Below are positions 3,837 to 19,801 of a stretch of DNA of 24,000 nucleotides, piece by piece. Each line of letters opens with the position of its first letter. The stretch's first letter is position 1. This DNA comes from Eubacteriales bacterium (GTDB taxonomy: Bacteria > Bacillota > Clostridia > Oscillospirales > CAG-272): NCBI GenBank assembly GCA_045538195.1, contig JAZSRA010000065.1, positions 1 to 24,000 on the forward strand, in the 5' to 3' direction. The notes beneath the pieces were generated by a model that did no database searches, was not told the DNA's origin, and worked only from the letters and a program-made list of their open reading frames with translations. Made by a program: the position numbers and the translations under genes.

Positions 3837-4490
3837 TTAATTTACAGGCGTACCGTATGTCTCTTCGCCTAAGGCTCCGTTTTCGGTATCTTCTGCTCCA
3901 ATTTCGACTGTTGTTTCGTTTTCTTCGCCTTCGTTTTCAAAAAAATTATAGCTGAAAAAGACATCAAAAACACACATTATCACCAGCAAAAACGCAACCA
4001 ACGTAGCTATCAGTGCCGAAAGCCGCGGTTTTCCGAACTCTCTCGGGCGTATCGAAAATTCTGTTATATAGTTTGCTCTTGGAGCATTCTTGATTATCTG
4101 CCCGTCAGCCTTGACGTAATCCACGGTAGATCTGCCGTTTCGGACGGTATATTTATATCGTTCAGACATAATTTTCGTGAACACAATTCTAAAATCCGCA
4201 CAATACTCGTCCACCACTATCATCGCAGGAGCAACGTAAGTCGTTCCGGGCATAAAGTTGATGCCGTTATATTTAATTTTTAAGGTTTCAAGTATTTTTC
4301 CCGAAGCATCCATCTGGACAACGGAAAATTCCATAGCGTTCACAACGTAATCAAGCTCATTTAAAAATCTGAGCGTTAAGCATTTCTTTTCGTTGTGTCT
4401 GACAAAAATATACTCTTTTACCGAAACAAGATCGCTGATCTGGGGATGTTCATAAACTCCCTTGGAAATATATTGTCGTTGCGAAGTCAT
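3837..4490 (-). CDS. Hypothetical single-pass membrane protein (soluble beta-rich N-domain, one TM helix, acidic C-tail)
   Basis: The ORF-track start at 4517 is TTG; ATG at 4490 (MTSQRQ) has GAAAGGA 7 nt upstream. TM helix LSALIATLVAFLLVIMCVFDVFF, then the tail ENEGEENETTVEIGAEDTENG. No family recognised. Confidence 0.65.
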   Translation of the reverse strand: MTSQRQYISKGVYEHPQISDLVSVKEYIFVRHNEKKCLTLRFLNELDYVVNAMEFSVVQMDASGKILETLKIKYNGINFMPGTTYVAPAMIVVDEYCADFRIVFTKIMSERYKYTVRNGRSTVDYVKADGQIIKNAPRANYITEFSIRPREFGKPRLSALIATLVAFLLVIMCVFDVFFSYNFFENEGEENETTVEIGAEDTENGALGEETYGTPVN

Positions 4491-4540
4491 TTCAAAATCC
4501 TTTCTCGGATAAACCAATTTCTGATTTTCTGATCGTTGCT

Positions 4541-5251
4541 TTATTTGAATATCTTTACGTCTTTTTCACGGTGAAAAACAAGTATGATTCCCGCAAGCGC
4601 AGCACCCGCCGCCGCCGAAACCAGTATTTGCATAAGGGGCAACCCTGCCGCGATAAGCTTTATTGAAGGGAGTATTACCTCGATCAATGAAAATACCGAC
4701 GATCTTAAGGTCAAATATTCCACCACGGTAAGCACGGCAGTCACAGCGGCAAAGGTAACGACTCTCCAAATCGAATAATGCATTTTAGGGCTACCCGGAA
4801 CAATAAATCTGTTCACTTCCTTAACAACAACACAAACATAAGCAGTATTTTCGGGAAGAATAGCTGCCGCAGCGTCGCCAGATGAAACCTTTGGCACAGA
4901 TATTTGTATCGTGTCTATCTCATTGTTGCCTGAATCCAATGCAACCACGTCATATTTAATGGAAAGTATTCTCTTGTCAAATTTGCATTTTATGTACTTA
5001 TCACCGTCGTTTACGGAAAGTATATACTGCTTTATGTATTTTCCCGTCTCACCGTAGGGCTTATAGGTAATTGCTCTGCCGCCCTCGAAAACATATTTTT
5101 CGAGTCCTCTGTCTCCCATGTCCTGCACATTATAGTTCGCTTTCAGTAAAAACAAGGGCAATATCTTAGACACAAGGGCAACGTACAGAGACAAACTGAA
5201 AACAAATATTATTATTTGTGTCGGGATCGACATTGTGATCATTGTTGTCAT
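4541..5251 (-). CDS. Hypothetical polytopic membrane protein (N-terminal TM anchor, about 120-aa domain related to the 217-aa neighbour, C-terminal TM bundle)
   Basis: ATG at 5251 with AGGAGA 5 nt upstream. Hydrophobic segments at both ends. Central KYIKCKFDKRILSIKYDVVALDSGNNEIDTIQISVP resembles KKCLTLRFLNELDYVVNAMEFSVVQMDASGKILETLKIKY of the neighbouring protein. Confidence 0.65.
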   Translation of the reverse strand: MTTMITMSIPTQIIIFVFSLSLYVALVSKILPLFLLKANYNVQDMGDRGLEKYVFEGGRAITYKPYGETGKYIKQYILSVNDGDKYIKCKFDKRILSIKYDVVALDSGNNEIDTIQISVPKVSSGDAAAAILPENTAYVCVVVKEVNRFIVPGSPKMHYSIWRVVTFAAVTAVLTVVEYLTLRSSVFSLIEVILPSIKLIAAGLPLMQILVSAAAGAALAGIILVFHREKDVKIFK

Positions 5252-5304: not shown

Positions 5305-6795
5305 TTATTTGGCATATTTAGAGAATATCCTTCTCACGTCTTCCTCGGTAACGGTCGAACCACCCAGATGCTTCAGTATTTCCTCGGCAACGGACGTTGC
5401 CATATCGTCCGGCAACGTAATACCGTATTCTTTGATGTATTCCCGGGCATAGGATGCAAGTACCTTTGCCTTTTCTTCTTCACTGGAATATCCTCTGTCG
5501 TTTACCTTGTTGATAGCATCGGCAATATCTTCCATCAACACATTGTATTTTGATGAATCGTAGTCAAATTCTCGGATATATTTCGAAACCGCCGCCATTG
5601 CTATTGAAGAAACGCTGATGCCGCTCATGTTGGGGTTTTCCTTAAGAATAGCATCCAGCCTGCCAACAATATCGCTTTCATTCACATACTCTACAAGAGA
5701 ATTGAAATTGCTCATATTTACGGCAAAAAGATCGCTATCCATCACTGCAGCGTATAGTTTCAACAAAGTGATCATATTAGCCTTTGCGCTGTGATGGTCT
5801 GTGTTTTGACAAACCGAAAGTATTTCATCAAAGGCGGGTTCGATCAGATCGTTGGTAACAGGCTTCGCTATGCCAAAAACCCGATCACCGTTTTTCCATG
5901 CAGTTGCAAAACTTGAAATATATTCACCCAAAGCTCCCGAGAATAGCTCCAGTCTTTCTACGTTATCGCAAAGCCCATATATTCGGCTTATTTGCTCGTC
6001 AGTTGCGTTTTGGGGATCAACGAATGCGCTATACGTGTACTTGAGATCATCAAAAACATCTACCAGTGCGTCTGCTTCGGAAATCAAGTGGACTCTTTCA
6101 CCGTAAACCTCAGCGCTTGCGGCACTATAATACATCAGTTTGCCTCCAAGCTGATAAAAAACATTTCCGCAAAAGTCGTTTGCATAAACAGACAAGTCTA
6201 TTTCGTTTGCACTTTCCGTCACGCTATCCGTCTCGCTTAGTTTAAAATTGCCAACAATACTCAAAGTCTTGTTTGCAACGTCAAGAGTTCCCATTATCGG
6301 ACTCGTTATTACCATAGTTACAACAACCGAAACGATCACACCCGTAATGACCGACAGCACTTTGTCGTTTTGATCAAAATAAGAGTTTTCCTCTTTACAG
6401 TATTCTGGCGTATCAGCGAAACGTCTGATCTTGCTTTTACACACTATACGAACGATAAATTGAGTAATAGCGCGAACCGCAAAAAACACCGCAACGAAAA
6501 GTAGCGACCCGAGGACCATTCCCATGATAGCCTCAACAAATACGTTTACCCAGGAATAGTCTTGAACCAATTCCCGATACACAGAAAGGTTATTGAGAAT
6601 TAAATACGATACAAGGCTTGAAATGACTTCGGAAATGAGATATGTAACCAAAGCGGAAAAAATCACAGAAAACACAACTATAGCAAGTGAGATAAGGGTC
6701 ATTCTGAACCCTTTTTTGATGCTTCGATACACCTCCGTTGCAGTCACCGAGAAAAATATCAACAATATTGCGATCGAAAATAAGCTAAAAGTCAT
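5305..6795 (-). CDS. Membrane protein with a CvpA-like N-terminal TM bundle and a roughly 300-aa helical C-terminal domain
   Basis: ATG at 6795 with AAGAGGA 7 nt upstream. There are 4-5 N-terminal TM helices (FSIAILLIFFSVTA, LISLAIVVFSVIFSALVTYLI, GMVLGSLLFVAVFFAV, VITGVIVSVVVTMVI). The CvpA-family call is by overall resemblance only. Confidence 0.6.
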   Translation of the reverse strand: MTFSLFSIAILLIFFSVTATEVYRSIKKGFRMTLISLAIVVFSVIFSALVTYLISEVISSLVSYLILNNLSVYRELVQDYSWVNVFVEAIMGMVLGSLLFVAVFFAVRAITQFIVRIVCKSKIRRFADTPEYCKEENSYFDQNDKVLSVITGVIVSVVVTMVITSPIMGTLDVANKTLSIVGNFKLSETDSVTESANEIDLSVYANDFCGNVFYQLGGKLMYYSAASAEVYGERVHLISEADALVDVFDDLKYTYSAFVDPQNATDEQISRIYGLCDNVERLELFSGALGEYISSFATAWKNGDRVFGIAKPVTNDLIEPAFDEILSVCQNTDHHSAKANMITLLKLYAAVMDSDLFAVNMSNFNSLVEYVNESDIVGRLDAILKENPNMSGISVSSIAMAAVSKYIREFDYDSSKYNVLMEDIADAINKVNDRGYSSEEEKAKVLASYAREYIKEYGITLPDDMATSVAEEILKHLGGSTVTEEDVRRIFSKYAK

Positions 6796-6915
6796 ATCTT
6801 TGTCCTCTTTTCGGGAGTAATAATTAAAAAGCTTGCATCAGACCTAATCAACAACTAAAAACACTTTTAGCAGTGCCTAATCTGAAGCATATTTCACAGT
6901 CAATAAATATTCATA

Positions 6916-6944
6916 ATTATACCATATACACTCGAATTTGTCAA
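6916..6944 (-). promoter_or_regulatory. Consensus sigma-A type promoter for the 6795->1 operon
   Basis: Minus strand reads TTGACA (6944-6939), a 17-nt spacer, then TATAAT (6921-6916). This lies about 120 nt upstream of the ATG at 6795. Confidence 0.6.
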
Positions 6945-6992
6945 CTGAAATATGTGACACCAGAAAAATTGAACAAGTTCATATCTCAAATT

Positions 6993-7031
6993 AAAACGGC
7001 TGACACCATCGTGTTTGATAGTGTCAGCCGT
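6993..7031 (-). terminator. Rho-independent terminator candidate for the rex-hydS-hydA operon
   Basis: 11-bp perfect inverted repeat ACGGCTGACAC (6996-7006) / GTGTCAGCCGT (7021-7031) with a 14-nt loop. On the minus strand it is followed by TTTAATTT. It lies about 245 nt downstream of the stop at 7277. Confidence 0.5.
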
Positions 7032-7276
7032 ATGAGTCGTAATGCTAAGTAGGTTTTAGATCTATGAGTTCGGCGTAAACCTTGTCTTCTTGAATGATCC
7101 TCTGATCAATATTCAGTCCTCAATTAGACCAAGAACAACCTTCCTAATATCAATATAGGATCGGTAATGCCGCAATCGATGACTTCTTTATAGGCAACAT
7201 CCAATTGATAAACAACTTCATGATGGCTCTTGACAAAGAGCAGATCAAATATTTAAGCAAGCCGTTATCAATTTCT

Positions 7277-8707
7277 TTATTTTAAAATAGATATCGCATC
7301 ACCGATAGTCTTTTCAAGTGACTCACGGCCGTATTTGTCAACCTCGGCTTTATTTTTTTCACCGTGGGTGAGGCATCCTGCGCCGCCGATACAACCGCCG
7401 ACACACGCCATGCCCTCGATAAAGTTGCCGTCAAGCGCACCCTTGCTCAGCTTTAGCAGAGCCACACGGCAGGCTTCAATTCCGTCGCATACCACGGGCT
7501 TTATCTCAAAGTCGATGTTCTGCTCCTTCATCGCCTGTACTGCCGCATCGGTAAGACCTCCGCTGCGGGCAAAGATACGACCGAAGTAGGAAGCGTTATC
7601 GAGGACTCCCTCCTCAAGGGATGCGATATCAAGATCACGGCTGTCAAAGAGTGCCTGAAGCTCCTCAAAGGTCAGCACGGTATCCACGTAAGGCTTGACA
7701 GACTCGAGCTGAGCCTCTGCCTTTTTAGCGGTACAAGGGCCGATAAAGATGACCTTTGCGTTAGGTGTAGTCTCCTTAATGTACTTTGCAAGCACCGCCA
7801 TGGGAGACATATTATGAGAAATATGCTCAACCAGATTCGGGAACGTGGACTTTATGTACTGCACGAATGCGGGACAGCAGGAGCTTGTAAGAAGACCCTT
7901 TTCGGAAAGCTCTCTTGCTTCTGCCATAGCCACCATATCCGCGCCAAGTGCCGCCTCGATAACGTCGTGGAAGCCGAGCTTTTTAAGTCCCGTTACCACC
8001 TGACCCAACTTTGCGTAAGAGAATTGGCTCGAAATAGAGGGAGCAACAACGGCATATACCTTGTAATTGCCGCCTCTTGTGTCGCTCCTGCTCTTTTTGA
8101 GAATATCGATGGCGTTCAGTATAAAGGACTTGTCCATAATTGCGCCGAAGGGACACTGATATACGCAAGCGCCACACTGTATGCACTTGTGGTTGTCGAT
8201 AGCCGCCGCACTTTGCTCGTTCATAGAAATTGCCTTGACCTTGCAAGCATTCTGGCAAGGACGCTTGCGGCTGACGATAGCGGTATAGGGGCAGACCCTG
8301 GCACAGGCACCGCACTCCTTACACTTGGATTTGTCGATGTGTGCAACGTGATTGTGGTCGAAGGTGATAGCACCGAATTTGCACACGTCCTCGCAACGGT
8401 GAGCGAGACAGCCGCGGCAGGCGTTGGTCACCTCATAACCGCCAACGGGACACTCGTCGCAGGCGATATCTATGACCTGTATAATATTAGGATTATCCTT
8501 GTCGCCGCCCATCGCCAGCTTGACTCTCTCGCCAAGAATTGCTCTTTCCTTATATACGCAACAGCGCATAGTAGGCTCGTTACCTGGTACGATGTTTTTG
8601 GGAATATCCATAATATTATCAAGCAGCTTATCCTCCCACGCGAGGCGAGCCACTTCACGCAATACTTTATATTTTAAATGTTGTACTTTTGTATCAAATT
8701 TACGCAT
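7277..8707 (-). CDS. hydA: [FeFe] hydrogenase, monomeric ferredoxin-type (group B-like), with N-terminal Cys-rich and 2x[4Fe-4S] ferredoxin domains
   Basis: H-cluster motifs LTSSCCPAFV, FIGPCTAKKAEA and EGMACVGGCIGGAG. Ferredoxin motifs CKECGACARVCP and CIQCGACVYQCP. N-terminal MRCCVYKERAI and CDECPVGGY. The track start at 8719 is TTG; ATG at 8707 (MRKFD) sits 8 nt after the PP2C stop, with GAGGTG as RBS. Confidence 0.9.
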   Translation of the reverse strand: MRKFDTKVQHLKYKVLREVARLAWEDKLLDNIMDIPKNIVPGNEPTMRCCVYKERAILGERVKLAMGGDKDNPNIIQVIDIACDECPVGGYEVTNACRGCLAHRCEDVCKFGAITFDHNHVAHIDKSKCKECGACARVCPYTAIVSRKRPCQNACKVKAISMNEQSAAAIDNHKCIQCGACVYQCPFGAIMDKSFILNAIDILKKSRSDTRGGNYKVYAVVAPSISSQFSYAKLGQVVTGLKKLGFHDVIEAALGADMVAMAEARELSEKGLLTSSCCPAFVQYIKSTFPNLVEHISHNMSPMAVLAKYIKETTPNAKVIFIGPCTAKKAEAQLESVKPYVDTVLTFEELQALFDSRDLDIASLEEGVLDNASYFGRIFARSGGLTDAAVQAMKEQNIDFEIKPVVCDGIEACRVALLKLSKGALDGNFIEGMACVGGCIGGAGCLTHGEKNKAEVDKYGRESLEKTIGDAISILK

Positions 8708-8715
8708 TTTACACC

Positions 8716-9888
8716 TCAAAAATAACTAACTTTAATGCGTTTGCCCATTTTCTTGAGACAAGCAGATAATTCCTCAACAAGATTCATTTTGATGTTGAAA
8801 TTGATTGGAAGATCAGGGTTTTGATGTGCGGGGTTGACCGCTCTGCCGACGTAGAAGTTGATATCCGTCGCTTCTTCAAACAAAAGTCGGCTGATAAGTG
8901 ACGCGCCATCCTTTTTAAAGCTCCATTCCTCGTAAAGTTCATTCTTGCCAAGGTAATCCTTTGCATACTGAATGACCTTGTTCATGGTAATAACCCCTTC
9001 GGTTACGAGGTCAACGCCCTCGATGCGCGCGATAGGGGGAACGTCGCTTCTTTCAAAGTTAAGGCTTGCCTGAATGGGCTTGCCCAGATATTTTGACGCG
9101 ATTGAAGAAGTAGTGCCGCCGCAGATGATGTGCTTACCCTCTTTGGAGAAGAAAAGCGACATCATTCTATTTGCGTCGTCGCGGTTGGAGGGAGGCCCAA
9201 AAAGAATATTCATAGGCTCTCGCTTTCTGATCTTAATAACGCAAGCGGTAGTATCGTCTCCCGGCTTGTGACCGTAAAGCTTGTCGCATTCGTCAACCAG
9301 CATCGTTGAAAGATTTTTGGCAGTAAAGCCGCCCGCCACCATCGCCTGCATATAGTCGGCGATATCCTGCCTTTTCCAACCGAAATTGTATTTCCCACCC
9401 ATTCCTGCGTGGGGACATCCGTCGCTCATAGCGATAAACGTGTCGTCCTCCTGCAGTTTAATGGTGGATTTGTATATTTTTTTGCCACCGATGTTCATTT
9501 CGGTCATAGGATAATCGTACTGATCGTAATTTCTTATTATGATCACGTGAGGATTATCGTACTGAATGATCTCGGCTATTTCGTTGTTCAGAAGATGAAT
9601 AATAGTAAAGGTGGAATACGCCACGCCGCGTACCGAGCAAACGGGAAGCGTTGCGGCTATGGTAGACACACATTCTTCAATGGGAAGTCCTGCCGCCATC
9701 ATCGTTGAGATGATCTTGGAGGTCAGAGTGGAGAGAATGCTTGCCTTAACACCCGAACCCAGACCGTCTGCAAGTACGATGACCGTGGAATTTTCGTTTT
9801 CCTCCACGATGTCTACGTGGTCGCCGCAAAGCTCCTCGCCGACGTGATTGATGCTCTTATATCCGATATCTGCACACAAATCATTCAT
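8716..9888 (-). CDS. PP2C/SpoIIE-family serine phosphatase with an uncharacterised roughly 170-aa C-terminal domain
   Basis: N-terminal GEELCGDHVDIVEENENSTVIVLADGLGSGVKASILS ... FIAMSDGCPHAG is typical of the SpoIIE/RsbU PP2C fold. The ATG at 9888 overlaps the hydS stop by 8 nt (ATGAATGA). Confidence 0.85.
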   Translation of the reverse strand: MNDLCADIGYKSINHVGEELCGDHVDIVEENENSTVIVLADGLGSGVKASILSTLTSKIISTMMAAGLPIEECVSTIAATLPVCSVRGVAYSTFTIIHLLNNEIAEIIQYDNPHVIIIRNYDQYDYPMTEMNIGGKKIYKSTIKLQEDDTFIAMSDGCPHAGMGGKYNFGWKRQDIADYMQAMVAGGFTAKNLSTMLVDECDKLYGHKPGDDTTACVIKIRKREPMNILFGPPSNRDDANRMMSLFFSKEGKHIICGGTTSSIASKYLGKPIQASLNFERSDVPPIARIEGVDLVTEGVITMNKVIQYAKDYLGKNELYEEWSFKKDGASLISRLLFEEATDINFYVGRAVNPAHQNPDLPINFNIKMNLVEELSACLKKMGKRIKVSYF

Positions 9889-11560
9889 CGTCGATAGACT
9901 CCTTCAGCTTAGTTAGCGCGACCTTGGTCTCCGCGGCGGTCTCGCCCAGCAGAGATGCTATCTCCTGAACGATCCTCATCTGCTTTTCAACAACGGTATC
10001 GGCAACCTCAACGGTCTTCTTGTTGATCATTGCCTTTCTCTCTCTGTCGGCTTCTTCGTCGGTAATGTCTCGCATAATACCGATGAGCATACGGGAATCG
10101 GGATCGTAAACCACGGTTTGTCTGATGTATTTTTTGTACTCGGCAAGGTAAACTCTCTGGTCACGAACGCTTCTGCCGGTCTCCATTACTTTAATGAAAA
10201 CCGCAGGATCGAGAATGCGGACTACCGGCTCACCCAACACGTCGCTTTCGGAGCGAATGTTCATGATCTTACGTGCGGAGGCGTTAATTTGCTGAACCTC
10301 AAGATTCTCGTTCAACGCGATAAGACCGTTGGGTGTATTCTTTACAATAGTGTCCGAAAAGCTCTCCGCCTTGTCCTTAAGGAAGGGCAGACACATAGAG
10401 ATTTCCGCCTTGCCCTGAATGATAGCGATAGCCTTTTCACGGCAGGAATTGTAGCCACAGGAGCCGCAGTTCAATTCATCGGAGGACTTGAACTTGCCCA
10501 TCTGACGCAGAACGGTCATGATCTCATTTTCTGAGGGCTGCGCGAGCTTATGCTCGATCATTGAAAAGTGCTTTTTGAGACTCATCGAATCAGGCTGCGC
10601 TACTTCAAAATCGCGTTCTCCCGCATAATCGGAAACCGTGATATAGTCCTTTATGGGAGAAGACCTATGATACTTTTCCATAACGGGACCACCGATACAG
10701 CTGCCTACGCAAGCAGACATCTCGATGAAGCACTTGTGGATCTTGCCGCTTTCGATGTCCTTGAGGGCAGAGATGCAGTTCTCAACGCCGTCAAGGGCAA
10801 GATAAGTATATCCGGGTGCATTTTGAGCCATTGTTTTCAATACACCGCCTGTGGTGGGAAAGAAGCGTGCGCGGCTTTCGGGCGTGTTGTCCACTTCCTT
10901 TTCAAGCTCGATCTTTTCTGCTTTAAGCCAGTTGGTAAGCTCCTCAAATGTGAGAACTGCGTCAACGATGCCCTCGTAATATTCAGCTTCGTCCTTCTTT
11001 GCCACGCAAGGACCTATAAATACGGTCTTTGCCCCGGGGTATCTTCTTTTTATATCCGCACAATGCGCCTGCATAGGGGACATAACGTCCGCGAGATATT
11101 CAAGGCAGGAGGGAAAGTATTTTTGAATGAGCAGATTGACCGAGTGGCAGCAGGAGGTTATTATAATGTCCCTCTCATCCTCGAAAAGCATGCGCTCATA
11201 TTCGGTCTTAACGATAGTTGCACCGATAGCAGTTTCCTCAACGCCGTAAAAGCCCAGCTTTTTTAAAGCTCGGCGAATAGATTCGATACCAACGCCCTCG
11301 TAGTTTGCGATGAAGGAGGGAGCCAAGCTGACTATAACGGGATCCTTGCTCTGAAGCAGAACTCTCGCTTTTTCGGTGCTGTCAACGATTTCCTTTGCGT
11401 TTTGAGGACAAACTACAAAACAATGACCGCACAAAATGCACTCATTGCCGATGATATGCGCCTGGTTGCCCGAAAAACGTATCGCCTTTACAGGACAGTG
11501 ACGGATACATTTATAGCAATTTTTGCAATTCGATTTTTTTAGTGTCAAGCAATTTGCCAT
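9881..11560 (-). CDS. hydS: Putative sensory [FeFe] hydrogenase (HydS type, group C): 2x[4Fe-4S] + H-domain + extra 4-Cys motif + PAS domain
   Basis: CKNCYKCIRHCP and CILCGHCFVVCP. Variant H-cluster motifs ITSCCHSVN, FIGPCVAKKDEAE and IEMSACVGSCIGGP. C-terminal CGSCGYNSCREKA followed by a PAS-like segment (NTPNGLIALNENLEVQQINASARKIMN...IGIMRDITDEE). The track start at 11569 is TTG; ATG at 11560 (MANCLTLKK) has AAAGGGG upstream. Confidence 0.85.
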   Translation of the reverse strand: MANCLTLKKSNCKNCYKCIRHCPVKAIRFSGNQAHIIGNECILCGHCFVVCPQNAKEIVDSTEKARVLLQSKDPVIVSLAPSFIANYEGVGIESIRRALKKLGFYGVEETAIGATIVKTEYERMLFEDERDIIITSCCHSVNLLIQKYFPSCLEYLADVMSPMQAHCADIKRRYPGAKTVFIGPCVAKKDEAEYYEGIVDAVLTFEELTNWLKAEKIELEKEVDNTPESRARFFPTTGGVLKTMAQNAPGYTYLALDGVENCISALKDIESGKIHKCFIEMSACVGSCIGGPVMEKYHRSSPIKDYITVSDYAGERDFEVAQPDSMSLKKHFSMIEHKLAQPSENEIMTVLRQMGKFKSSDELNCGSCGYNSCREKAIAIIQGKAEISMCLPFLKDKAESFSDTIVKNTPNGLIALNENLEVQQINASARKIMNIRSESDVLGEPVVRILDPAVFIKVMETGRSVRDQRVYLAEYKKYIRQTVVYDPDSRMLIGIMRDITDEEADRERKAMINKKTVEVADTVVEKQMRIVQEIASLLGETAAETKVALTKLKESIDDE

Positions 11561-11565
11561 ATCCG

Positions 11566-11829
11566 TCAACCCCTTTCGCTTTCTATAACATCAAGTATAT
11601 TTTTCTTGAAAAATTCTCTGAAATTATCTCTCGTCACGCCAACGTGAATGTCATCGTTTACCTGAACGGTAACGCCAATGCGGTTGCACTTTCCGATGCA
11701 AAAGCTACCGGAAAGCACTACCTCATCCTCAATATGATATTCTTCCAAGGCTTTTTCAAAAAGCTCGACTATATCCTGTGAGCCTTTGAGGTAGCAAGAC
11801 GAGCCAACACAAACCTGAACAAACAACAT
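11566..11829 (-). CDS. Thioredoxin-like [2Fe-2S] ferredoxin (NuoE/HndA-fold small protein), copy 2
   Basis: MLFVQVCVGSSCYLKGSQ...SGSFCIGKCNRIGVTVQVND has a CxxxxC...CxxxC pattern. It is a paralogue of the upstream ORF. The track's 113-aa version overlaps the upstream gene; the internal ATG at 11829 lies 4 nt after that gene's stop. Confidence 0.75.
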   Translation of the reverse strand: MLFVQVCVGSSCYLKGSQDIVELFEKALEEYHIEDEVVLSGSFCIGKCNRIGVTVQVNDDIHVGVTRDNFREFFKKNILDVIESERG

Positions 11830-11833
11830 GATC

Positions 11834-12076
11834 TTATACCTTTGCCAAAACTTCTCTAGCGAAGAACTCTCCAACGCTTTCGGGAGTAACGGAATGGAAG
11901 GAGTCATTTACAGTTACGCATACGCCCTGCTGGCACTTGCCCATGCAGAAGGTGCCGCCAAGCTCTACCTTGTCTCCGATATTGTTCTCAGCGATCAGAT
12001 TCTGGAGCTGTTCTACTACCTGACGGGAACCCTTAATGTGACAGGAGCTTCCGATACAAACTGTGATCTTTATCAT
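11834..12076 (-). CDS. Thioredoxin-like [2Fe-2S] ferredoxin (NuoE/HndA-fold small protein), copy 1
   Basis: MIKITVCIGSSCHIKGSRQVV...GGTFCMGKCQQGVCVTVND has the same four-Cys pattern. RBS AAGAGGAA lies 7 nt upstream of the ATG at 12076. Confidence 0.8.
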   Translation of the reverse strand: MIKITVCIGSSCHIKGSRQVVEQLQNLIAENNIGDKVELGGTFCMGKCQQGVCVTVNDSFHSVTPESVGEFFAREVLAKV

Positions 12077-12177
12077 AATTCTATTCCTCTTTTATTTTTA
12101 ATTTTTTGGGGTTCCAACCCTTTTTTGTAGGATATGCGTTAAATTGGAGTTTGTAGGGGGATACGAGGGATGCGACC

Positions 12178-12199
12178 TACTTTCTTTGAAAAGAAAGTA
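12178..12199. promoter_or_regulatory. Perfect 22-bp palindrome (10-2-10) in the kinase-ferredoxin intergenic region
   Basis: TACTTTCTTT-GA-AAAGAAAGTA. No U-tract follows on the minus strand, so it is not a canonical terminator. It is a candidate operator or an RNA processing/stability hairpin. Confidence 0.4.
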
Positions 12200-12246
12200 A
12201 GCCGCCGGAGGCACGCTTCCTCACCGATAAATCAAAATTTGAACAA

Positions 12247-12996
12247 TTACTGATGATCTGCAACGCTGCCCCAGTTCATAAGGAATTCGCGCTCTGCCTC
12301 GTTACCGTTGACCGACTGAGATGCCGCTACTATAGGCACCCACTTCTGAATGTACTGCTTTTCGGTGTCGCTCTTCTTACAGAAGAGGTCGAGATAAAGT
12401 TCAGCTCCGCCGATGTCGCCGTTCAGACAGAAGATAATGTAGGTGCGTGCAGCGTCTGCTGATGCGTTACCCTGAGTTGCATGAGACCAATCGAGGATAT
12501 AGGGGGTGCCGTCCTCGGTGATAATGATGTTGGAGGGGTTAAAATCTCCATGGCAGACCTTGTTGTGCTTGGGCATACCCTCAAGACGGGTGTGAAGATC
12601 GTAACGGGTGGTTGCGTCAAGCTCGGTATCGGCGATCTTTTGGTTCATCTTGTCCTTCAGCTTGTTGAGAAGGGGACAGGTCTTTGCGTGAACGTTCATC
12701 TGAAGGTCAACAAGAAGCTCGATATACTCGTTCTTCTTTTCGGGCTGCTCTGTCAGCAGCTGTGCCAGCGTTTTACCCTTGATGAACTCGGAAACGATCG
12801 CCCACTTGCCGTCGATCATAGTGACCTCAATAACCTTGGGGATGTTCAGACCGATCTCCTCGATCCTTGCCTGATTGAGCGCCTCATTCAGCACGTCTGC
12901 CTTGGAATATTCTGCGTTAAAGACCTTGATGCATCTGTCACCGTCACGGTAGATGGTCTTATTATTTCTTACTGCGATTACTCTGTCAAGTTTCAT
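12247..12996 (-). CDS. Protein kinase-like fold enzyme (aminoglycoside phosphotransferase/choline kinase superfamily); probable Ser/Thr kinase partner of the PP2C
   Basis: Catalytic loop CHGDFNPSNIIITEDGTPYILDWSHATQGNASADAARTY (HxDxxxxN ... DW). N-lobe Lys context DRCIKVF. Strong RBS GGGGAGGA upstream of the ATG at 12996. Confidence 0.75.
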   Translation of the reverse strand: MKLDRVIAVRNNKTIYRDGDRCIKVFNAEYSKADVLNEALNQARIEEIGLNIPKVIEVTMIDGKWAIVSEFIKGKTLAQLLTEQPEKKNEYIELLVDLQMNVHAKTCPLLNKLKDKMNQKIADTELDATTRYDLHTRLEGMPKHNKVCHGDFNPSNIIITEDGTPYILDWSHATQGNASADAARTYIIFCLNGDIGGAELYLDLFCKKSDTEKQYIQKWVPIVAASQSVNGNEAEREFLMNWGSVADHQ

Positions 12997-13057
12997 TTAT
13001 CTGTCCTCCCCTATTATCTGCGAGTTTGCAACGCCGCGATAGTAGTCCTGCTGAAAA

Positions 13058-13681
13058 TTATTTGCTGATTTGATTATTGAGATACGCTAAGGAAAGGGCG
13101 AGATTTTCTTGCTTTAAAAGAACGCCCGATGGAAGAGAGAGGGTGCAGGGCGCGAAATTCCAGATCGCTGTAATACCGCTTGCTACCATTATGTCGCAAA
13201 CCTCCTGCGCCGAGCCTTGTCCTACCGTAATTACTCCCAGCTTAACGTCATTCTTCTTGCAAAAAGCTTCAAGATCCTTGATAGGCATGATAGATTTTGA
13301 ACCATTGCCCATCTGAATAACACGGTCGTTGCTATCAAACCCCGCGATGATCTTTACTCCAAACGCCTCAAAGCCGTCGTAGTCGAGAAGTGCCTTGCCA
13401 AGCTTTCCTGCACCGACCAAAACCGCGTTAGTAAGACTCTCTCGTCCGAGATGTCTTTCAATATCTGATATTAGCTTTTCTTTTTCGTAACCGACTTTAG
13501 GTTTTCCCGCACCGCTTACTGCTTGGAGATCCTTGCGGACCTGTACGTCGCCAAGGGACAATCCCTTTGCAATTGCCGTCGCGGATATTGTACTGCCATG
13601 AATCGTCGGAAGATCTTTCAAATATTGAAGATATGTAGGGAGCCTTCCGAGAGTTGCCTTTGGGATAGAATTTCCGTTCAT
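13058..13681 (-). CDS. rex: Redox-sensing transcriptional repressor Rex
   Basis: IPKATLGRLPTYLQYL winged-helix N-terminus, a Rossmann GxGxxG (VLVGAGKLGKALL) and GITAIWNFAP near the C-terminus. RBS GGAGGTGG. Confidence 0.9.
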   Translation of the reverse strand: MNGNSIPKATLGRLPTYLQYLKDLPTIHGSTISATAIAKGLSLGDVQVRKDLQAVSGAGKPKVGYEKEKLISDIERHLGRESLTNAVLVGAGKLGKALLDYDGFEAFGVKIIAGFDSNDRVIQMGNGSKSIMPIKDLEAFCKKNDVKLGVITVGQGSAQEVCDIMVASGITAIWNFAPCTLSLPSGVLLKQENLALSLAYLNNQISK

Positions 13682-13735
13682 TTTCCACCTCCGGTTTTTA
13701 TTGACATTATTTTATCATATATTTAAATTTTTGGG

Positions 13736-13775
13736 AATAATTAAAATGTTATATCGGTATTATAAATATCGATAT
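13736..13775 (-). promoter_or_regulatory. Copy A of a 40-bp conserved promoter/operator block, upstream of rex
   Basis: AATAATTAAAATGTTATATCGGTATTATAAATATCGATAT is 38/40 identical to 18657-18696. On the minus strand it contains TATAAT (13764-13759) and the palindrome ATATCGATAT in the -35/-10 spacer. It lies 55-94 nt upstream of the rex ATG. Confidence 0.55.
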
Positions 13776-13982
13776 GCCTTTAATCGATAAAATATATATC
13801 AAAAAAACGAGCAGTTTTGTGTTATTGACGAAATAGCTCGCCCATATTGTATTTTGCTTGGAAAATGGACGGAGAAAATGACAAAACAGACATAATTCAT
13901 CGCTCCGAAATCGTTTTACACACTTATTTTACCACGGTTTGACTCAAAATGCAATACGTTATAAAAAAAATGTCAATTTTTG

Positions 13983-14081: not shown

Positions 14082-15497
14082 TTATTTTGAAAGCGCCTCG
14101 TCAATGGCTTTTGCGGCGGTCTTACCTGCTCCCATAGCGGAAATGACCGTAGCCGCTCCGGTTACTGCGTCACCGCCTGCATAAACGGCATTTCTTGATG
14201 TAAGTCCGTCCTCGTTGACCACAATGCCGCCCCAACGATTGACCTCAAGTCCGTCGGTGGTGGACTTGATCAGCGGGTTGGGAGAGGTTCCGATAGACAT
14301 GATAACGGTGTCCACGTCAATAGTAAATTCGCTACCCTCAACAACCACAGGACGCCTTCTTCCGCGCTCGTCGGGTTCGCCTAGCTCCATTCTGACACAA
14401 GTCATACCCGTAACAAAGCCGTTTTTGGGATCTCTTGCATCTTCGGGATTATTATATCCGAGAATTTCGGTGGGATTACAGAGCAGACGGAACTCAATTC
14501 CCTCCTCCTCTGCGTGTTCAACCTCCTCGCGGCGCGCGGGAAGCTCCTCCATAGAACGGCGATAGACGATATAGACCTTTTCAGCTCCAAGGCGAAGCGC
14601 GGTTCTCGCCGCGTCCATAGCAACGTTACCGCCTCCAACTACCGCTACATTACCGCCTTTCATAATAGGTGTTTCAGGATTGTCAAGATAGGATTTCATC
14701 AGGTTGCTTCTGGTCAAAAATTCATTTGCCGAGTAAACACCCTTCAGAGATTCGCCGGGAATACCCATAAAGTTGGGAAGTCCCGCGCCCGAACCGATAA
14801 ATACGGCTTCATAACCCATCTGGAAAAGCTCATCGACGGTCAAGGTCTTTCCTATGACCACGTTGGTCTCGATCTTAACGCCAAGCTTTTTAAGGGTGTC
14901 AACCTCTTTTGCAACGATCTTTTTGGGAAGACGGAACTCAGGAATACCGTAAACAAGCACGCCGCCCGCAGTGTGCAGAGCCTCGAAAACCGTTACGTCG
15001 TAACCTTTTTTCGCAAGATCGCCCGCGCAAGTCAGACCCGAAGGACCCGATCCAACGATGGCAACTCTGTGTCCGTTTCTTTCGGGGCGTACAGGCTCCT
15101 CGGTGCAGAAGGTATTGTGCCAATCCGCAACGAATCTTTCAAGTCTGCCGATACCGACACTCTCGCCCTTGATTCCTCTCACGCACTTGGACTCGCACTG
15201 AGTTTCCTGAGGGCAAACTCGACCGCAGACCGCGGGGAGAGAGGAGGATTTTGTAATGATCTGATACGCTCCCTCAAAGTCGCCTTCTTTGATCTTGGTT
15301 ATAAACTCGGGGATATGTATCTTTACGGGGCAACCGTCCACACAAGGCATATTTTTGCAACTAAGGCAACGCATAGCCTCGTCGATGGCGGTTTCTTCGG
15401 AATAGCCCAACGCCACCTCGTCAAAGTTGCGTGCGCGAACCTTGGCGTCTTGTGTGGGCATCTCATTTCTTGTTAAGGACATATTTGCTTTTGCCAT
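14082..15497 (-). CDS. nfnB: NfnB-type subunit (GltD-like NADPH-dependent FAD/[4Fe-4S] oxidoreductase; NADH-dependent reduced ferredoxin:NADP+ oxidoreductase beta subunit)
   Basis: N-terminal Cys clusters CLSCKNMPCVDGCP and CGRVCPQETQCESKC. Dinucleotide folds VAIVGSGPSGLTCAGDLA and VAVVGGGNVAMDAART. The size (471 aa) and pairing with a PyrK-like subunit fit NfnAB. GltD or SudA function is not excluded. Confidence 0.8.
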   Translation of the reverse strand: MAKANMSLTRNEMPTQDAKVRARNFDEVALGYSEETAIDEAMRCLSCKNMPCVDGCPVKIHIPEFITKIKEGDFEGAYQIITKSSSLPAVCGRVCPQETQCESKCVRGIKGESVGIGRLERFVADWHNTFCTEEPVRPERNGHRVAIVGSGPSGLTCAGDLAKKGYDVTVFEALHTAGGVLVYGIPEFRLPKKIVAKEVDTLKKLGVKIETNVVIGKTLTVDELFQMGYEAVFIGSGAGLPNFMGIPGESLKGVYSANEFLTRSNLMKSYLDNPETPIMKGGNVAVVGGGNVAMDAARTALRLGAEKVYIVYRRSMEELPARREEVEHAEEEGIEFRLLCNPTEILGYNNPEDARDPKNGFVTGMTCVRMELGEPDERGRRRPVVVEGSEFTIDVDTVIMSIGTSPNPLIKSTTDGLEVNRWGGIVVNEDGLTSRNAVYAGGDAVTGAATVISAMGAGKTAAKAIDEALSK

Positions 15498-15498
15498 T

Positions 15499-16353
15499 TT
15501 ACTTCACGTCCTTTCTAAAAAGATTACAGCTATCTTCATAAGCATGGCGCTCAAAATCGGCGTACATTCTGCCTCTTGACATCGCCTCGTCAAAGTCGAT
15601 CTCGTATCCGTTGAAATCAGGACCGTCAACACAAGCGAACTTGGTTACCTTTTTGCCGTCGATGTTGAGAGTGAGACGGCATCCGCCGCACATTCCCGTG
15701 CCGTCTATCATGATGGGATTCATGGAAGCGGTTACGGGTGTGCCGTAAGGCTTTGCGGTCGCCACAACGAACTTCATCATAATAAGAGGACCGATAGTGA
15801 TGATCATATCAAATTTCTCGCCCGCTTCAAGCATTTCTTTGAGGGGAACGGTTACGTTTCCGTGTTCACCGTACGAGCCGTCGTCGGTCATCACGCGCAG
15901 AGTGTTTGAGCAAGCCTTGAATTCGTCCTCAAGGATAAGGAGATCCTTATTTCTGAATCCGATGATGCTTGTAACGTCAGCGCCCATTTCGTGGAGCGCT
16001 TCGGCGATAGGCATAGCGATAGCGCAACCAACGCCGCCGCCAACAATGCAGACCTTCTTAAGTCCGTCGAGGTGTGTCGCCACGCCAAGAGGGCCTACAA
16101 AGTCCTGAATATACTCGCCCGCTTCTTTATAAGAGAGCTTTTTCGTAGTGCCGCCAACCACTTGGAAAATGATCTTGACGGTTCCGTTTTCTTTGTCAAC
16201 TCCTGCAACGGTAAGGGGGATTCTTTCGCCCTCCTCGTCGACGCGCAGGATTATAAACTGTCCGGGTCTCGCCTTGTTTGCCACCAGCGGTGCTTCGATC
16301 CAAAGCTGAATGACCGTGGGATTAAGTACCTTTTTATCTACTATTCTATACAT
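15499..16353 (-). CDS. nfnA: NfnA-type subunit (PyrK-like FAD/NAD-binding protein with a C-terminal [2Fe-2S] site)
   Basis: RPGQFIILRV, IVGGGVGCA and the C-terminal GTGMCGGCRL...FACVDGPDF. The track start at 16365 is TTG; ATG at 16353 (MYRIVD) has GGAG 6 nt upstream. The stop lies 1 nt before the nfnB ATG. Confidence 0.8.
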   Translation of the reverse strand: MYRIVDKKVLNPTVIQLWIEAPLVANKARPGQFIILRVDEEGERIPLTVAGVDKENGTVKIIFQVVGGTTKKLSYKEAGEYIQDFVGPLGVATHLDGLKKVCIVGGGVGCAIAMPIAEALHEMGADVTSIIGFRNKDLLILEDEFKACSNTLRVMTDDGSYGEHGNVTVPLKEMLEAGEKFDMIITIGPLIMMKFVVATAKPYGTPVTASMNPIMIDGTGMCGGCRLTLNIDGKKVTKFACVDGPDFNGYEIDFDEAMSRGRMYADFERHAYEDSCNLFRKDVK

Positions 16354-16383
16354 TTTCTTCTCCAACCTTTAATAATAGGGCGA

Positions 16384-17202
16384 TTATTTCTTTACAAAAT
16401 TTTTGCCTATGACACTACCGCCGTCAACGAGTACGTCTACACCGGCAAGATAACCGTTTCTCTCGTCTGCGACGGTCGCGATTGCAAATCCAAGCTCCTC
16501 CGGCTTGCCCATACGTCTTTCAGCCGTTGTATCCAAAAGGCTTCCGCCTTCCTCCGCCTCAAGGTTGCCCATGTCGGTTGCGATCAGTCCCGGACTGAGA
16601 GAACAGACGCGGATTCCCTTAGGACCAAGCTCGTAAGCGGATTTTGCCGCATACCAGATAACGAACTTTTTGGAAAGACCGTAAGCAAGTCCTGATGCCT
16701 TATAGCCTTTAAGCTTGTTAGGCAGAGCGAGAATCTTTTTGAGAAACTTTGCCTCGTCCTTATCGGCAAGAGCAAAGGTCTTTTTGCTTGCAAGGAAATT
16801 CGGAAGTATATATGCTGAGTTGGAAGAAACGTCAACGATAACGCTTCCCGCACCCATCAATTTTGAAAATTCTTCATTGACATAGACGGTTCCGAGAGCG
16901 TTTACTCTCATAATCTTTTCAGGCTCTGCCATAGCAGGAGAGAGTCCTGCGGAATTGATGACGTTTTTGATCTCACCAAGGCTTACTGCGTATTCGGCAA
17001 GCTCACGGACCTGCTCTCTTACAGAGGTGTCGCAGGTCTTGGCGTATGCCTCATATCCGAGAGATTCCAGCTCCTTCACTGCATTTTCAAGCTTGGAGAG
17101 AGTTCTTCCGGTCACGACGATAATTTTGTCCTTGGGCATGCACTTGGCAGCGGCAAGACCCATTCCGCTTCCACCACCAGTTATCACGCATACAGTTTTC
17201 AT
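16384..17202 (-). CDS. Short-chain dehydrogenase/reductase (SDR) family oxidoreductase
   Basis: VCVITGGGSGMGLAAAK (TGxxxGxG), NSAG and YGLSKK (YxxxK). RBS AAGAGGAAA. Confidence 0.85.
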   Translation of the reverse strand: MKTVCVITGGGSGMGLAAAKCMPKDKIIVVTGRTLSKLENAVKELESLGYEAYAKTCDTSVREQVRELAEYAVSLGEIKNVINSAGLSPAMAEPEKIMRVNALGTVYVNEEFSKLMGAGSVIVDVSSNSAYILPNFLASKKTFALADKDEAKFLKKILALPNKLKGYKASGLAYGLSKKFVIWYAAKSAYELGPKGIRVCSLSPGLIATDMGNLEAEEGGSLLDTTAERRMGKPEELGFAIATVADERNGYLAGVDVLVDGGSVIGKNFVKK

Positions 17203-17251
17203 TCGTTTTCCTCTTTTCTGTCATTGAAAATTTTAATGAAAAGCGCCAGGA

Positions 17252-17291
17252 CATCTCTGAGCGATCATTGCACGATTAGCTGTCAGAGATG
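17252..17291 (-). other. Strong hairpin between adh and the SDR gene (weak terminator or attenuator candidate)
   Basis: CATCTCTGA (17252-17260) / TCAGAGATG (17283-17291) with a 22-nt loop. On the minus strand a T-run begins only about 8 nt after the stem. Confidence 0.35.
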
Positions 17292-17365
17292 CCTTTTCGA
17301 TTATTTCAACAATTCTCGATGTGTCAACAATCTTGAATTAATAAATAATATTTAATACGCCTATA

Positions 17366-18583
17366 TTAGAAATCAACTTCTGTGTCGTAGTAGCAGCACT
17401 TGAGAAGCTTTTCCATTTCCTCGACAGAGATTGCTCTGGGGTTGGAGCCTGTGCAAGCGTCTGCAACTGCGTTCTTTGCGATCTCGGGAAGTCTCTCAAG
17501 GAAGATGTTCTCGGGAACAAATCCGTTCTCGCAGGGGAGGCTGTCAAGACCGTAGTTTTTGATGCACTGAGGAATGTTGAGCGCGTCGTTCATACCACGG
17601 AGGTAAGCGATGAGGTTTGCAACCTTTTCGTCATCGTTAGCGCCGCCAAGACCCATGTAATCAGCAATAACACCGTAACGCTTCTTTGCGGTCTCGTCCT
17701 TTGCATTGAAAGCGATAACCTTAGGAAGGTACATAGCGTTTGCCGCACCGTGGATAATGTGTGCGCCGAGGTCCTCGAAGATAGCACCGGTCTTGTGTGC
17801 CATGGAGTGAACGATACCGAGAAGAGCGTTGGAGAACGCCATACCTGCAAGGCACTGAGCGTTGTGCATGGATGCGCGCTTAGTCATATCGCCGTTGTAG
17901 GATTCAACGAGGTTGTCCTGGATCATCTTGATAGCGAAGATCGCGAGAGGATCGGTGAACTCGCAGTTAGCGGTGGAAACGTATGCCTCGATCGCGTGGG
18001 TCATAGCGTCCATACCGGTGTGAGCGGTGAGCTTCTTAGGCATGGTCTCAGCAAGCTCGGGGTCAACGATCGCAACGTCGGGAGTAATCTCGAAATCAGC
18101 GAGAGGATACTTGATACCCTTGTTATAGTCGGTGATAACAGAGAAGGCGGTAACCTCGGTAGCAGTACCGGAAGTGGAAGGAATTGCAACAAAGCGAGCC
18201 TTCTTACGAAGCTCGGGAATACCGAATACTACGCACATTTCCTCGAAAGTGATCTCGGGATACTCGTACTTGATCCACATAGCCTTTGCAGCGTCGATGG
18301 GCGAACCGCCGCCGATTGCAACGATCCAGTCGGGCTGGAACTTCAGCATAGCCTCAGCACCCTTCATAACGGTGTCAACGGAAGGATCGGGTTCGATACC
18401 TTCAAAGAGTTCAACCTCCATGCCTGCTTCCTTGAGGTAGGAAACGACCTTGTCAAGGAAACCGAAGCGCTTCATAGAACCGCCACCTACGCAAACCATT
18501 GCGCGCTCTCCCTTAAGATTCTTCAGCGCTTCAAGAGCGCCCTTGCCATGATAAAGATCACGGGGTAATGTAAAACGTGCCAT
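17366..18583 (-). CDS. Iron-containing (group III) alcohol dehydrogenase
   Basis: VAIGGGSPIDAAKAMW, FVAIPSTSGTATEVT and His-rich metal-site segments (HTGMDAMTHAIEAY, VHSMAHKTG). RBS AAGGAG. Confidence 0.9.
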   Translation of the reverse strand: MARFTLPRDLYHGKGALEALKNLKGERAMVCVGGGSMKRFGFLDKVVSYLKEAGMEVELFEGIEPDPSVDTVMKGAEAMLKFQPDWIVAIGGGSPIDAAKAMWIKYEYPEITFEEMCVVFGIPELRKKARFVAIPSTSGTATEVTAFSVITDYNKGIKYPLADFEITPDVAIVDPELAETMPKKLTAHTGMDAMTHAIEAYVSTANCEFTDPLAIFAIKMIQDNLVESYNGDMTKRASMHNAQCLAGMAFSNALLGIVHSMAHKTGAIFEDLGAHIIHGAANAMYLPKVIAFNAKDETAKKRYGVIADYMGLGGANDDEKVANLIAYLRGMNDALNIPQCIKNYGLDSLPCENGFVPENIFLERLPEIAKNAVADACTGSNPRAISVEEMEKLLKCCYYDTEVDF

Positions 18584-18656
18584 AACTTTTCTCCTTATAT
18601 GTGATATATTTTTTTAATCTGGTGCTTACATTATAACACAGTTTTTGGCTTGTGTA

Positions 18657-18696
18657 AATAACTAAAATGTTATATCGGTATTATCAATATCGATAT
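18657..18696 (-). promoter_or_regulatory. Copy B of the 40-bp conserved promoter/operator block, upstream of adh
   Basis: AATAACTAAAATGTTATATCGGTATTATCAATATCGATAT. The minus strand gives TTGATA (18708-18703), a 17-nt spacer, then GATAAT (18685-18680). The block is 74-113 nt upstream of the adh ATG. Confidence 0.55.
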
Positions 18697-18748
18697 AATC
18701 TATATCAATAGCAAACAAGTCTGCGTTTCCGCAAAGCCATCACATTTT

Positions 18749-19672: not shown

Positions 19673-19801
19673 AAACAAGTTCTCCTCTCCATACTAAACT
19701 TGCATATTTTTTGTCAAATCACAAACGCAACTCGGACTGCCCGCACGCGAGCAGCTGTTGCAATAAATTGAGTTTGAATTTAGTTCAACCACATATTACA
19801 T

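Follow-up and report, generated by a model that had tools for sequence, protein, structure and literature searches.

We analysed a 24,000-nt stretch of DNA (the window) from an uncultured gut member of the Oscillospirales, positions 1 to 24,000 of contig JAZSRA010000065.1 in assembly GCA_045538195.1. The minus-strand segment from 13800 to 6996 is probably best explained as the orthologue of the H2-responsive hydrogenase cluster of Ruminococcus albus 7, adhE having been lost. This reading includes a proposed signalling route from the putative sensory [FeFe]-hydrogenase HydS to the adjacent phosphatase PP2C, and takes the kinase-fold protein of the cluster for an adhE-associated carry-over. The locus is orthologous to the H2-responsive cluster; its HydS-PP2C pair is conserved and translationally coupled, the H-cluster site of HydS is detuned but complete, and an extra iron-sulphur (FeS) cluster lies beside the PAS domain. 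This kind of system has already been described, was correctly identified by a first-pass annotation of the same DNA, and is not new in itself. What the comparison with related loci adds is a linkage between the kinase and adhE, an uncharacterised domain of PP2C, a duplicated promoter module and a recurrent bundling of electron sinks.

Seven co-oriented genes occupy positions 7277-13681, in the order rex-kinase-fdx1-fdx2-hydS-PP2C-hydA. All long open reading frames (ORFs) of this segment lie on the minus strand, and ORF and domain scans agree with the gene identities proposed at first pass. Gene starts were placed at the most plausible ATGs supported by a ribosome-binding site (RBS). The first gene, rex (13058-13681, 207 residues), encodes a redox-sensing (NADH/NAD+) transcriptional repressor with NF003994, Put_DNA-bind_N and CoA_binding matches. 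It is followed by the kinase-fold gene (12247-12996, 249 residues), coding for an APH/choline-kinase-like phosphotransferase, and by a 170-nt hairpin-bearing spacer (12077-12246). Two thioredoxin-like [2Fe-2S] ferredoxins matching PF01257 come next: fdx1 (11834-12076, 80 residues, 35.8 bits, CX4C...CX3C) and fdx2 (11566-11829, 87 residues), whose ATG lies 4 nt past the fdx1 stop. The last three genes are hydS (9881-11560, 559 residues), for a putative sensory group C (M2f-type) [FeFe]-hydrogenase; PP2C (8716-9888, 390 residues), for a SpoIIE/RsbU-type Ser/Thr phosphatase; and hydA (7277-8707, 476 residues), for a monomeric group B [FeFe]-hydrogenase of the HydA2/HfsD type.

From rex to hydA, the successive intergenic gaps measure 61, 170, 4, 5, -8 and 8 nt. 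Tiny or overlapping junctions, previously ascribed to the whole series, are confined to the stretch from fdx1 to hydA and do not extend to the rex-kinase and kinase-fdx1 gaps. The junctions that had been quoted individually hold: the 8-nt overlap of the hydS stop with the PP2C start, ATGAATGA, the 8 nt between PP2C and hydA, and the 5 nt between fdx2 and hydS.

On the coding strand, strong terminator-like hairpins occur only at 14014-13988, past an nfnB-like gene, and at 7031-6996, and they bracket the unit. The second is the probable operon terminator (6996-7031, minus strand), a hairpin with a 15-bp stem followed by TTTAATTT, 245 nt past the hydA stop. Between the two, the scan returned a single weak stem, of 5 bp and within the kinase gene (12413-12401), its total number of matches being at chance level, and no above-chance promoter in the spacer, in line with the earlier impression that convincing internal terminators or promoters are lacking. 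The gene downstream of hydA has its own perfect sigma-70-type promoter (TTGACA-17-TATAAT, 6944-6916). The cluster appears to be driven by a single regulated promoter at its head.

The orthology rests on a tblastn search of plasmid records, in which the HydS of R. albus 7 plasmid pRUMAL01 proved 70% identical to that of the window. There (RUMAL_RS17350-17385), a LysR gene lies upstream of rex-adhE-phosphotransferase-fdx-fdx-hydS-SpoIIE phosphatase-4Fe-4S dicluster protein (HydA2), every gap from rex on is at most 17 nt, and hydS and the phosphatase gene overlap by 8 nt. Identities to the other R. albus 7 proteins are 50% for Rex, 73% for the kinase, 77% for Fdx1, 51% for Fdx2, 79% for PP2C, 77% for HydA and 61% for LysR. 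The two loci share gene order and orientation, the 8-nt hydS/PP2C overlap and a homologous promoter module with TATCGATA boxes. They differ in three respects: the window has no adhE between rex and the kinase gene, where 61 nt remain (seven of the eight genes are in order), it carries the 170-nt insertion before fdx1, and it has a second promoter copy before a separate unit of dehydrogenase and nfnAB genes. A similar R. albus 7 cluster had been named in the first-pass annotation; it is real, with the same order plus adhE.

In R. albus, the eight-gene cluster shows a 111-fold drop in co-culture with an H2 consumer, and its control by direct H2 sensing has been proposed (PMC6776011). A signalling route from HydS through its PAS domain to the kinase was proposed by Zheng et al. 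in 2014, in the form in which PMC5707799 cites that work.

Two further systems resemble the window. HydDB defines its group C3 as "phosphatase-linked (putative)" (PMC5037454), as had been stated at first pass. In the window, a sensory-type hydrogenase gene is likewise followed, with the 8-nt overlap, by a Ser/Thr phosphatase gene; the HydDB class is defined by sequence-similarity clustering, whereas this likeness is one of gene adjacency. The hfsABCD operon of Thermoanaerobacterium saccharolyticum and T. thermosaccharolyticum encodes the PAS hydrogenase HfsB, the serine phosphatase HfsC and the ferredoxin-linked hydrogenase HfsD (PMC5707799, PMC11837493). Compared by its description, it has the same core in the same order as the window. 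However, its four described products include neither Rex nor a kinase, and HfsA is described as unlike the two [2Fe-2S] ferredoxins found here. Deletion of hfsB raises both ethanol yield and hydrogenase activity, and the genetics indicates a regulatory role for HfsB (PMC5707799, PMC11837493).

For the wider comparison we took the 80 loci closest by PP2C (77-93% identity), from metagenome-assembled genomes of gut and rumen Oscillospirales/Acutalibacteraceae; each count below takes the loci with enough flanking sequence. PP2C itself belongs to a large family, with 529 clusters at 50% identity (E < 1e-30), nearly all of about 390 residues and covered over both domains of the protein. The 90% cluster of the window protein alone has 2753 members, and at least 590 species-level genomes carry the family. 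Next to PP2C, hydS is present in 76 of 76 loci, at least one ferredoxin gene in 75 of 76 (fdx1 in 74, fdx2 in 70) and hydA in 63 of 67, directly adjacent in 57. The 8-nt hydS/PP2C overlap occurs in 78 of 79 loci, and it reads ATGAATGA or ATGAATAA in 76 of them. In Monoglobus pectinilyticus, a member of another order, the genes run fdx-hydS-PP2C-hydA, again with this overlap, and neither kinase nor rex is present. The conserved functional core is fdx-fdx-hydS-PP2C-hydA.

The remaining genes vary. The kinase gene is found in 48 of 70 loci, rex in 15 of 49 and an adhE-like gene in 25 of 49. A survey of the seven-gene order, which had been suggested as a check of its conservation across Clostridia, shows that it is rare: the pattern of the window (rex and kinase present, adhE absent) recurs in one of 49 comparable loci, plus locus L067. 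A gene for a lactate/malate-dehydrogenase-like protein of 315 residues (ldh) lies between PP2C and hydA in L003, L004 (at about 10190-11140), L006, L007, L009 and L021, while in L035, L060, L067 and L073 it lies immediately behind hydA or, in divergent orientation, upstream of fdx1. With ldh, adhE and nfnAB as its recurrent attachments, the sensor core is thus found time and again in company with genes for other electron sinks (HydA2, AdhE, Ldh and NfnAB).

HydS has the architecture of a sensor-type enzyme. A Pfam scan detects Fe_hyd_lg_C (PF02906, E 8e-50), an FeS domain (PF04060, E 8e-11) and a PAS domain (E 6e-7); the protein consists of two N-terminal [4Fe-4S] motifs, the H-domain, a C-terminal Cx2Cx4Cx16C cluster and the PAS domain. 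Its motifs read TSCCHS, GPCVAKK, EMSACVGSC and CGSCGYNSC-x16-C, the last being the Cx2Cx4Cx16C cluster. Against solved HydA1 chains, TSCC aligns with TSCCP, IGPCvaKKdE with MPCxxKKxE and EMSACvgSC with EvMACpgGC, so that the four H-cluster cysteines are retained. In the numbering of CpI, M353 is replaced by Gly, M497 by Ser and P301 by His; K358 is kept. The motif claims of the first-pass annotation (H-cluster cysteines, TSCCHS, GPC, EMSAC, CGSCGYNSC and the PAS domain) are all borne out.

The scores of NCBIfam models place HydS outside both catalytic groups: it reaches 196 bits with TIGR04105 (group B1, cut-off 450) and 89 bits with TIGR02512 (group A, cut-off 406). HydA, in contrast, matches TIGR04105 (FeFe_hydrog_B1) over residues 4-448 with 585 bits. 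This classification by hidden Markov models had been put forward as a check, and in it the 559-residue protein fails both models and the 476-residue protein passes B1. Together with its motifs, the scores support the assignment of HydS to the PAS-containing, phosphatase-linked putative sensory class of M2f/group C type.

Two enzymes of this kind serve for comparison, TmHydS of Thermotoga maritima (group C/M2f) and TamHydS of Thermoanaerobacter mathranii (group D/M2e), both of very low activity according to a 2024 review. With window HydS they share two [4Fe-4S] motifs, the H-domain and the Cx2Cx4Cx16C motif (PMC10055695, PMC8163306). This motif, described for M2e/M2f enzymes (PMC8163306), is present in 77 of 77 full-length HydS relatives. 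TmHydS also has a PAS domain, and the same Gly and Ser replace its M353 and M497 equivalents (PMC10055695). At the C299 position, however, TmHydS has Ala, whereas a (T/S)SCCH motif with the cysteine intact occurs in window HydS, in R. albus HydS and in each of the 77 full-length relatives; this position has been described as variable in sensory enzymes, not as one where cysteine is strictly absent (PMC10055695). Window HydS thus agrees with TmHydS at two of the three published variant positions, and not at C299.

One of the two is less telling than it had seemed. The GPC motif had been listed as a sensor hallmark, yet HydA of the same operon has it as well (IGPCTAKK), and a GPC-type motif is also reported for the group B enzyme CpIII (PMC10055695). 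Replacement of M353 by Gly alone is therefore not diagnostic of a sensor. The other HydA motifs are TSSCCP and EGMACVGGC, and the enzyme is presumed to be a ferredoxin-dependent H2 producer. Greening et al. (2019) called the ferredoxin-only hydrogenase of R. albus "group A1" (PMC6776011). The NCBIfam models disagree, with window HydA in group B1 and R. albus HydA2 likewise by its 77% identity.

A more distant HydS-like gene (38% identity, 568 residues) occurs in Acetoanaerobium noterae (L083, 6992-9494). It is followed by a 236-residue ORF, not by a 390-residue PP2C, and may belong to a different sensory subgroup.

The translationally coupled PP2C matches PF07228 (SpoIIE) with 49.7 bits, and its CGD, DGxGSG, SDG and DD metal-binding motifs are invariant or nearly so. 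We modelled the protein with AlphaFold2 from a 51-sequence alignment, with a predicted local distance difference test score (pLDDT) of 90.5 and a predicted template-modelling score of 0.90. Residues 1-225 form the PP2C domain, whose nearest structures in Foldseek, with E values from 1e-14 to 6e-12, are SpoIIE (5mqh, E 1e-14), a Sphaerobacter PP2C that is uncharacterised, the RsbU domain of Rv1364c, and RsbX. The SpoIIE/RsbU-type branch of phosphatases is the one used in partner switching, and the likeness to the modules SpoIIE-SpoIIAA-SpoIIAB and RsbU-RsbV-RsbW lies in this domain. Unlike them, the window has neither a STAS substrate nor a HATPase-type anti-sigma kinase among its ORFs scanned with Pfam and NCBIfam, in keeping with what had been stated before, and its PP2C carries an unrelated C-terminal α/β domain.

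This second domain (residues 226-390, window 8716-9213) is Rossmann-like, separate and conserved; modelled alone, it reaches a pLDDT of 90.6. Even at E = 10, Pfam yields no match for it, and Foldseek gives no significant PDB match, the best, a UbiX/flavodoxin-like fold, having an E value of 0.036 and a TM score of about 0.3. Invariant residues include E297, G298 and T301 as well as G257 and G258, which belong to a GG[TS][TS] loop leading from a strand into a helix. We rejected the domain as a STAS-like phospho-acceptor: the structural search gives no support, with 0.036 as its best E value, and the hydroxyl residues of the GG[TS][TS] loop are not strictly invariant.

The promoter module at the head of the cluster (13702-13800, minus strand) spans about 80 nt and is laid out as follows: TATCGATA-like boxes spaced 15 bp apart, the -35 element ATAACATTTTAATTATTCCCA, 17 nt and a TG-extended -10. 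In front of rex it has three such boxes (13752-13800), a TTCCCA -35 and the extended -10 TGaTAAAAT (13737-13709). The window holds a second module (18619-18710, minus strand), with boxes at 18673-18710, a TTTACA -35, 17 nt and TG-TATAAT (18658-18630). It heads the upstream unit (14082-18583, minus strand), which consists of genes for an iron-type alcohol dehydrogenase (Fe-ADH, 18583-17366), a short-chain dehydrogenase/reductase (SDR, 17202-16384), an NfnA-like protein (16365-15499) and an NfnB/GltD-like protein (15497-14082), and which ends at the hairpin 14014-13988. A 23-bp palindrome, TATCGRTATT-N3-AATAYCGATA, is exact both before rex (13752-13774) and before Fe-ADH (18673-18695), with 0 occurrences expected by chance. 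An nhmmer profile of the module has two hits in the window (rex copy, E 6e-14; Fe-ADH copy, E 9e-17) and further ones in R. albus 7 and 21 related loci; in every case the module heads the cluster. As the promoter is duplicated in the window, Fe-ADH-SDR-nfnA-nfnB may well be co-regulated with the rex-hydA operon.

Sites upstream of a weak -35 are in the usual position for an activator, and the TATCGATA boxes are so placed. A LysR-family regulator gene lies further upstream (18749-19678, minus strand); its counterpart ahead of rex in R. albus 7 is 61% identical, and among the related loci such a gene is a frequent upstream neighbour. This LysR is a candidate regulator. The idea that the boxes are specific to rex-bearing loci was discarded: in the profile alignment, rex-less loci have a homologous site without the CGAT cores. 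For this reason we assign the boxes neither to Rex nor to LysR.

Rex scores well above the cut-off of its family model (NF003994, 236 bits, cut-off 130) and has the winged-helix and Rossmann NADH domains of that family. The consensus of Rex operators is TTGTTAAnnnnTTAACAA. A search of the operon with two consensus sequences found no Rex box with three or fewer mismatches. The best TTGTTAAnnnnTTAACAA match at each window promoter has five mismatches and lies, degenerate, over the -10; the R. albus 7 promoter has at least five. Yet a near-canonical clostridial Rex box (at most three mismatches) overlaps the -10 in 13 of 24 homologous promoter modules. It is present in nine of nine clusters without rex versus four of 15 with rex, counts uncorrected for phylogeny, and the split could reflect phylogeny.

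From the literature and the anatomy of the locus, we infer the following course of events. H2 would be bound and oxidised at the H-cluster of HydS, detuned by the M353-to-Gly and M497-to-Ser replacements. Electrons would then pass into the FeS relay of HydS, including the extra Cx2Cx4Cx16C cluster beside the PAS domain, with the two small [2Fe-2S] ferredoxins as likely redox partners. Through its PAS domain and C-terminal helix, HydS would modulate PP2C, with which it is translationally coupled and probably forms part of a complex, and PP2C would dephosphorylate some phosphoprotein, be it a regulator or an enzyme. As H2 accumulates, alternative sinks would be induced or activated: the group B HydA2 and, via the duplicated promoter, Fe-ADH and NfnAB. 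Rex may contribute an input from the NADH/NAD+ ratio.

The kinase has no part in this scheme. The protein matches APH (PF01636, 52.7 bits, cut-off 23.2) and RIO1 (41.6 bits, cut-off 22) and fails Pkinase (PF00069, 22.4 bits, cut-off 31.7), the catalytic loop alone aligning. Its NCBIfam matches are solely sub-threshold (TIGR02172, Bud32, APH(3') and thiamine kinase). With a profile of 18 orthologues searched against the PDB, the choline kinase LicA (4r77, E 9e-8) and APH-family, Bud32 and hygromycin kinases outrank any Ser/Thr kinase. The motifs HGDFNPSN (HxDxxxxN) and ILDWSHA (DW/DF) are present, and residues K24, D151, N156 and D169 are invariant, which argues that the protein is probably an active phosphotransferase. 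In our sources it is variously labelled "phosphotransferase", "RIO-like serine/threonine protein kinase" and "TIGR02172 family".

The kinase gene follows adhE more closely than it follows the sensor. Of the 25 loci that have adhE, 23 also have the kinase gene, compared with 11 of the 24 that lack adhE (Fisher p = 6e-4, uncorrected for phylogeny). No kinase gene adjoins 22 of the 70 close cores of HydS and PP2C, and Monoglobus has none either. An orthologue of 48% identity stands directly after adhE in Collinsella aerofaciens (L084, 5228-8729), Enorma massiliensis and E. phocaeensis (L086-L089, 2225-5768); for about 5 kb around these adhE-kinase pairs there is neither hydS nor PP2C nor hydA. 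The genes that flank the pair are not all identical among the three Coriobacteriia. More remote homologues, sharing some 30% identity, are found in unrelated gene contexts in aerobes and on Clostridium estertheticum plasmids. We conclude that the kinase is probably an adhE-associated APH-like phosphotransferase, left over from an ancestral adhE-containing operon after the loss of adhE, and that it is not demonstrably the partner of PP2C. The 249-residue protein may still be a protein kinase.

As an observation of its own, the adhE-kinase gene pair is conserved across two phyla, in Oscillospirales and in Coriobacteriia.

A bolder arrangement of the same elements is conceivable, and we put it forward tentatively. 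The locus would have two regulatory layers. In the first, the kinase of the adhE-kinase pair would act on AdhE or on an AdhE-linked metabolite. In the second, the only dedicated output of HydS would be the two-domain PP2C, its C-terminal domain being a new receiver or ligand-binding module, and the transcriptional output would run via LysR and the TATCGATA-box promoter.

The model of the first-pass annotation was a different one: kinase and PP2C as an antagonistic pair on one protein (Rex, HydS or HydA), with HydS tilting the balance according to H2. The kinase gene does stand next to the core in 48 of 70 loci, is co-transcribed with fdx1 in most relatives, as the gap there is 9-21 nt, and keeps its catalytic residues; its matches to RIO1 (41.6 bits) and, weakly, to Bud32 are matches to atypical protein kinases, and a Ser/Thr kinase step was proposed by Zheng et al., to the extent that PMC5707799 cites it. 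Against this, the protein matches APH and fails Pkinase, and its nearest solved relatives are small-molecule kinases. It is absent beside 22 of 70 close cores, in Monoglobus and among the four hfsABCD products as described, and its orthologues pair with adhE in Collinsella and Enorma with no PP2C or hydS nearby. Moreover, SpoIIE/RsbU-type PP2Cs normally oppose HATPase-type kinases on STAS proteins, neither of which is in the window. The antagonistic pair is therefore unsupported, and we consider it unlikely.

The 170-nt spacer raises the question of whether rex-kinase and fdx1-hydA are two transcription units, the spacer hairpin terminating or processing the transcript. Its perfect 15-bp stem (arms 12172-12187 and 12190-12205) and the size of the gap speak for such a split, as does its being an insertion not found in relatives. 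But the hairpin lacks a T-tract, the terminator scan did not pick it up, its fold z-score is merely -1.9, and no sigma-70-like promoter in the spacer exceeds chance, the sole match overlapping the fdx1 start codon. The same junction measures 9-21 nt in most relatives, where it holds an RBS alone, and 17 nt in R. albus 7. A minority of relatives have unrelated insertions of 67-325 nt at this place, that of L005 holding a duplicated stretch, and the palindrome of the window spacer occurs in 0 of the 80 related loci. By this comparison the spacer is a lineage-specific insertion, and two separate units are improbable. As a conserved regulatory element the spacer was ruled out, being absent or replaced in relatives, with its palindrome at none of the 80 loci and a z-score of -1.9.

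Finally, HydS, the two ferredoxins and HydA might form a multi-subunit catalytic hydrogenase of Hfs type, HydS being an electron-transfer or catalytic subunit and PAS and PP2C merely serving post-translational fine-tuning; this we regard as quite improbable, for even though HydS retains every H-cluster ligand and the C299-equivalent cysteine, the genes from fdx1 to hydA are tightly and stoichiometrically spaced, in T. saccharolyticum the main H2-producing hydrogenase was identified as hfsABCD, and changes of alcohol dehydrogenase activity in hfs mutants are not fully accounted for by transcript levels (PMC5707799), deletion of hfsB raised hydrogenase activity and expression of hfsD alone gave the ΔhfsB phenotype, so that HfsB is dispensable for catalysis and a modulator, while TmHydS and TamHydS have very low activity and window HydS scores far under both catalytic models.

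Several points weigh against the reading that we prefer, an H2-responsive cluster signalling from HydS to PP2C with the kinase as a carry-over. No experiment has shown H2 sensing or signal transfer for any HydS, and the transduction mechanism is unknown according to the 2024 review. The HydS clade keeps the proton-relay cysteine equivalent to C299, so real catalytic turnover is possible, and the initial description of the homologous Thermoanaerobacterium hfs operon presented it as the main catalytic hydrogenase. The spacer, with its strong hairpin, could split transcription. With five mismatches, neither window promoter has a recognisable Rex box. The association of kinase with adhE, lastly, was observed among genomes that are related and so lack phylogenetic independence.

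Putative H2-sensing hydrogenases are thought to set the balance between release of H2 and production of ethanol or lactate in fermenters of the gut and rumen, a choice that feeds methanogens and shapes gas metabolism in the gut. In this setting, the widely assumed partner kinase turns out to be tied more tightly to adhE than to the sensor, and a common promoter module links the hydrogenase operon with the ADH/NfnAB unit. The comparison thereby sharpens the open question of how the signal leaves HydS.

Outside the cluster, a scan of the whole window with Rfam returned no RNA family, and four minus-strand flanking ORFs have no Pfam or NCBIfam match: 20216-21904 (562 residues), 5305-6795 (496), 4541-5251 (236) and 3837-4517 (226). 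A short plus-strand ORF at 6873-7052, without a Pfam match, resembles the N-terminus of a serine recombinase (..FDSVSRMSRNA..) and overlaps the terminator hairpin at 6996-7031.

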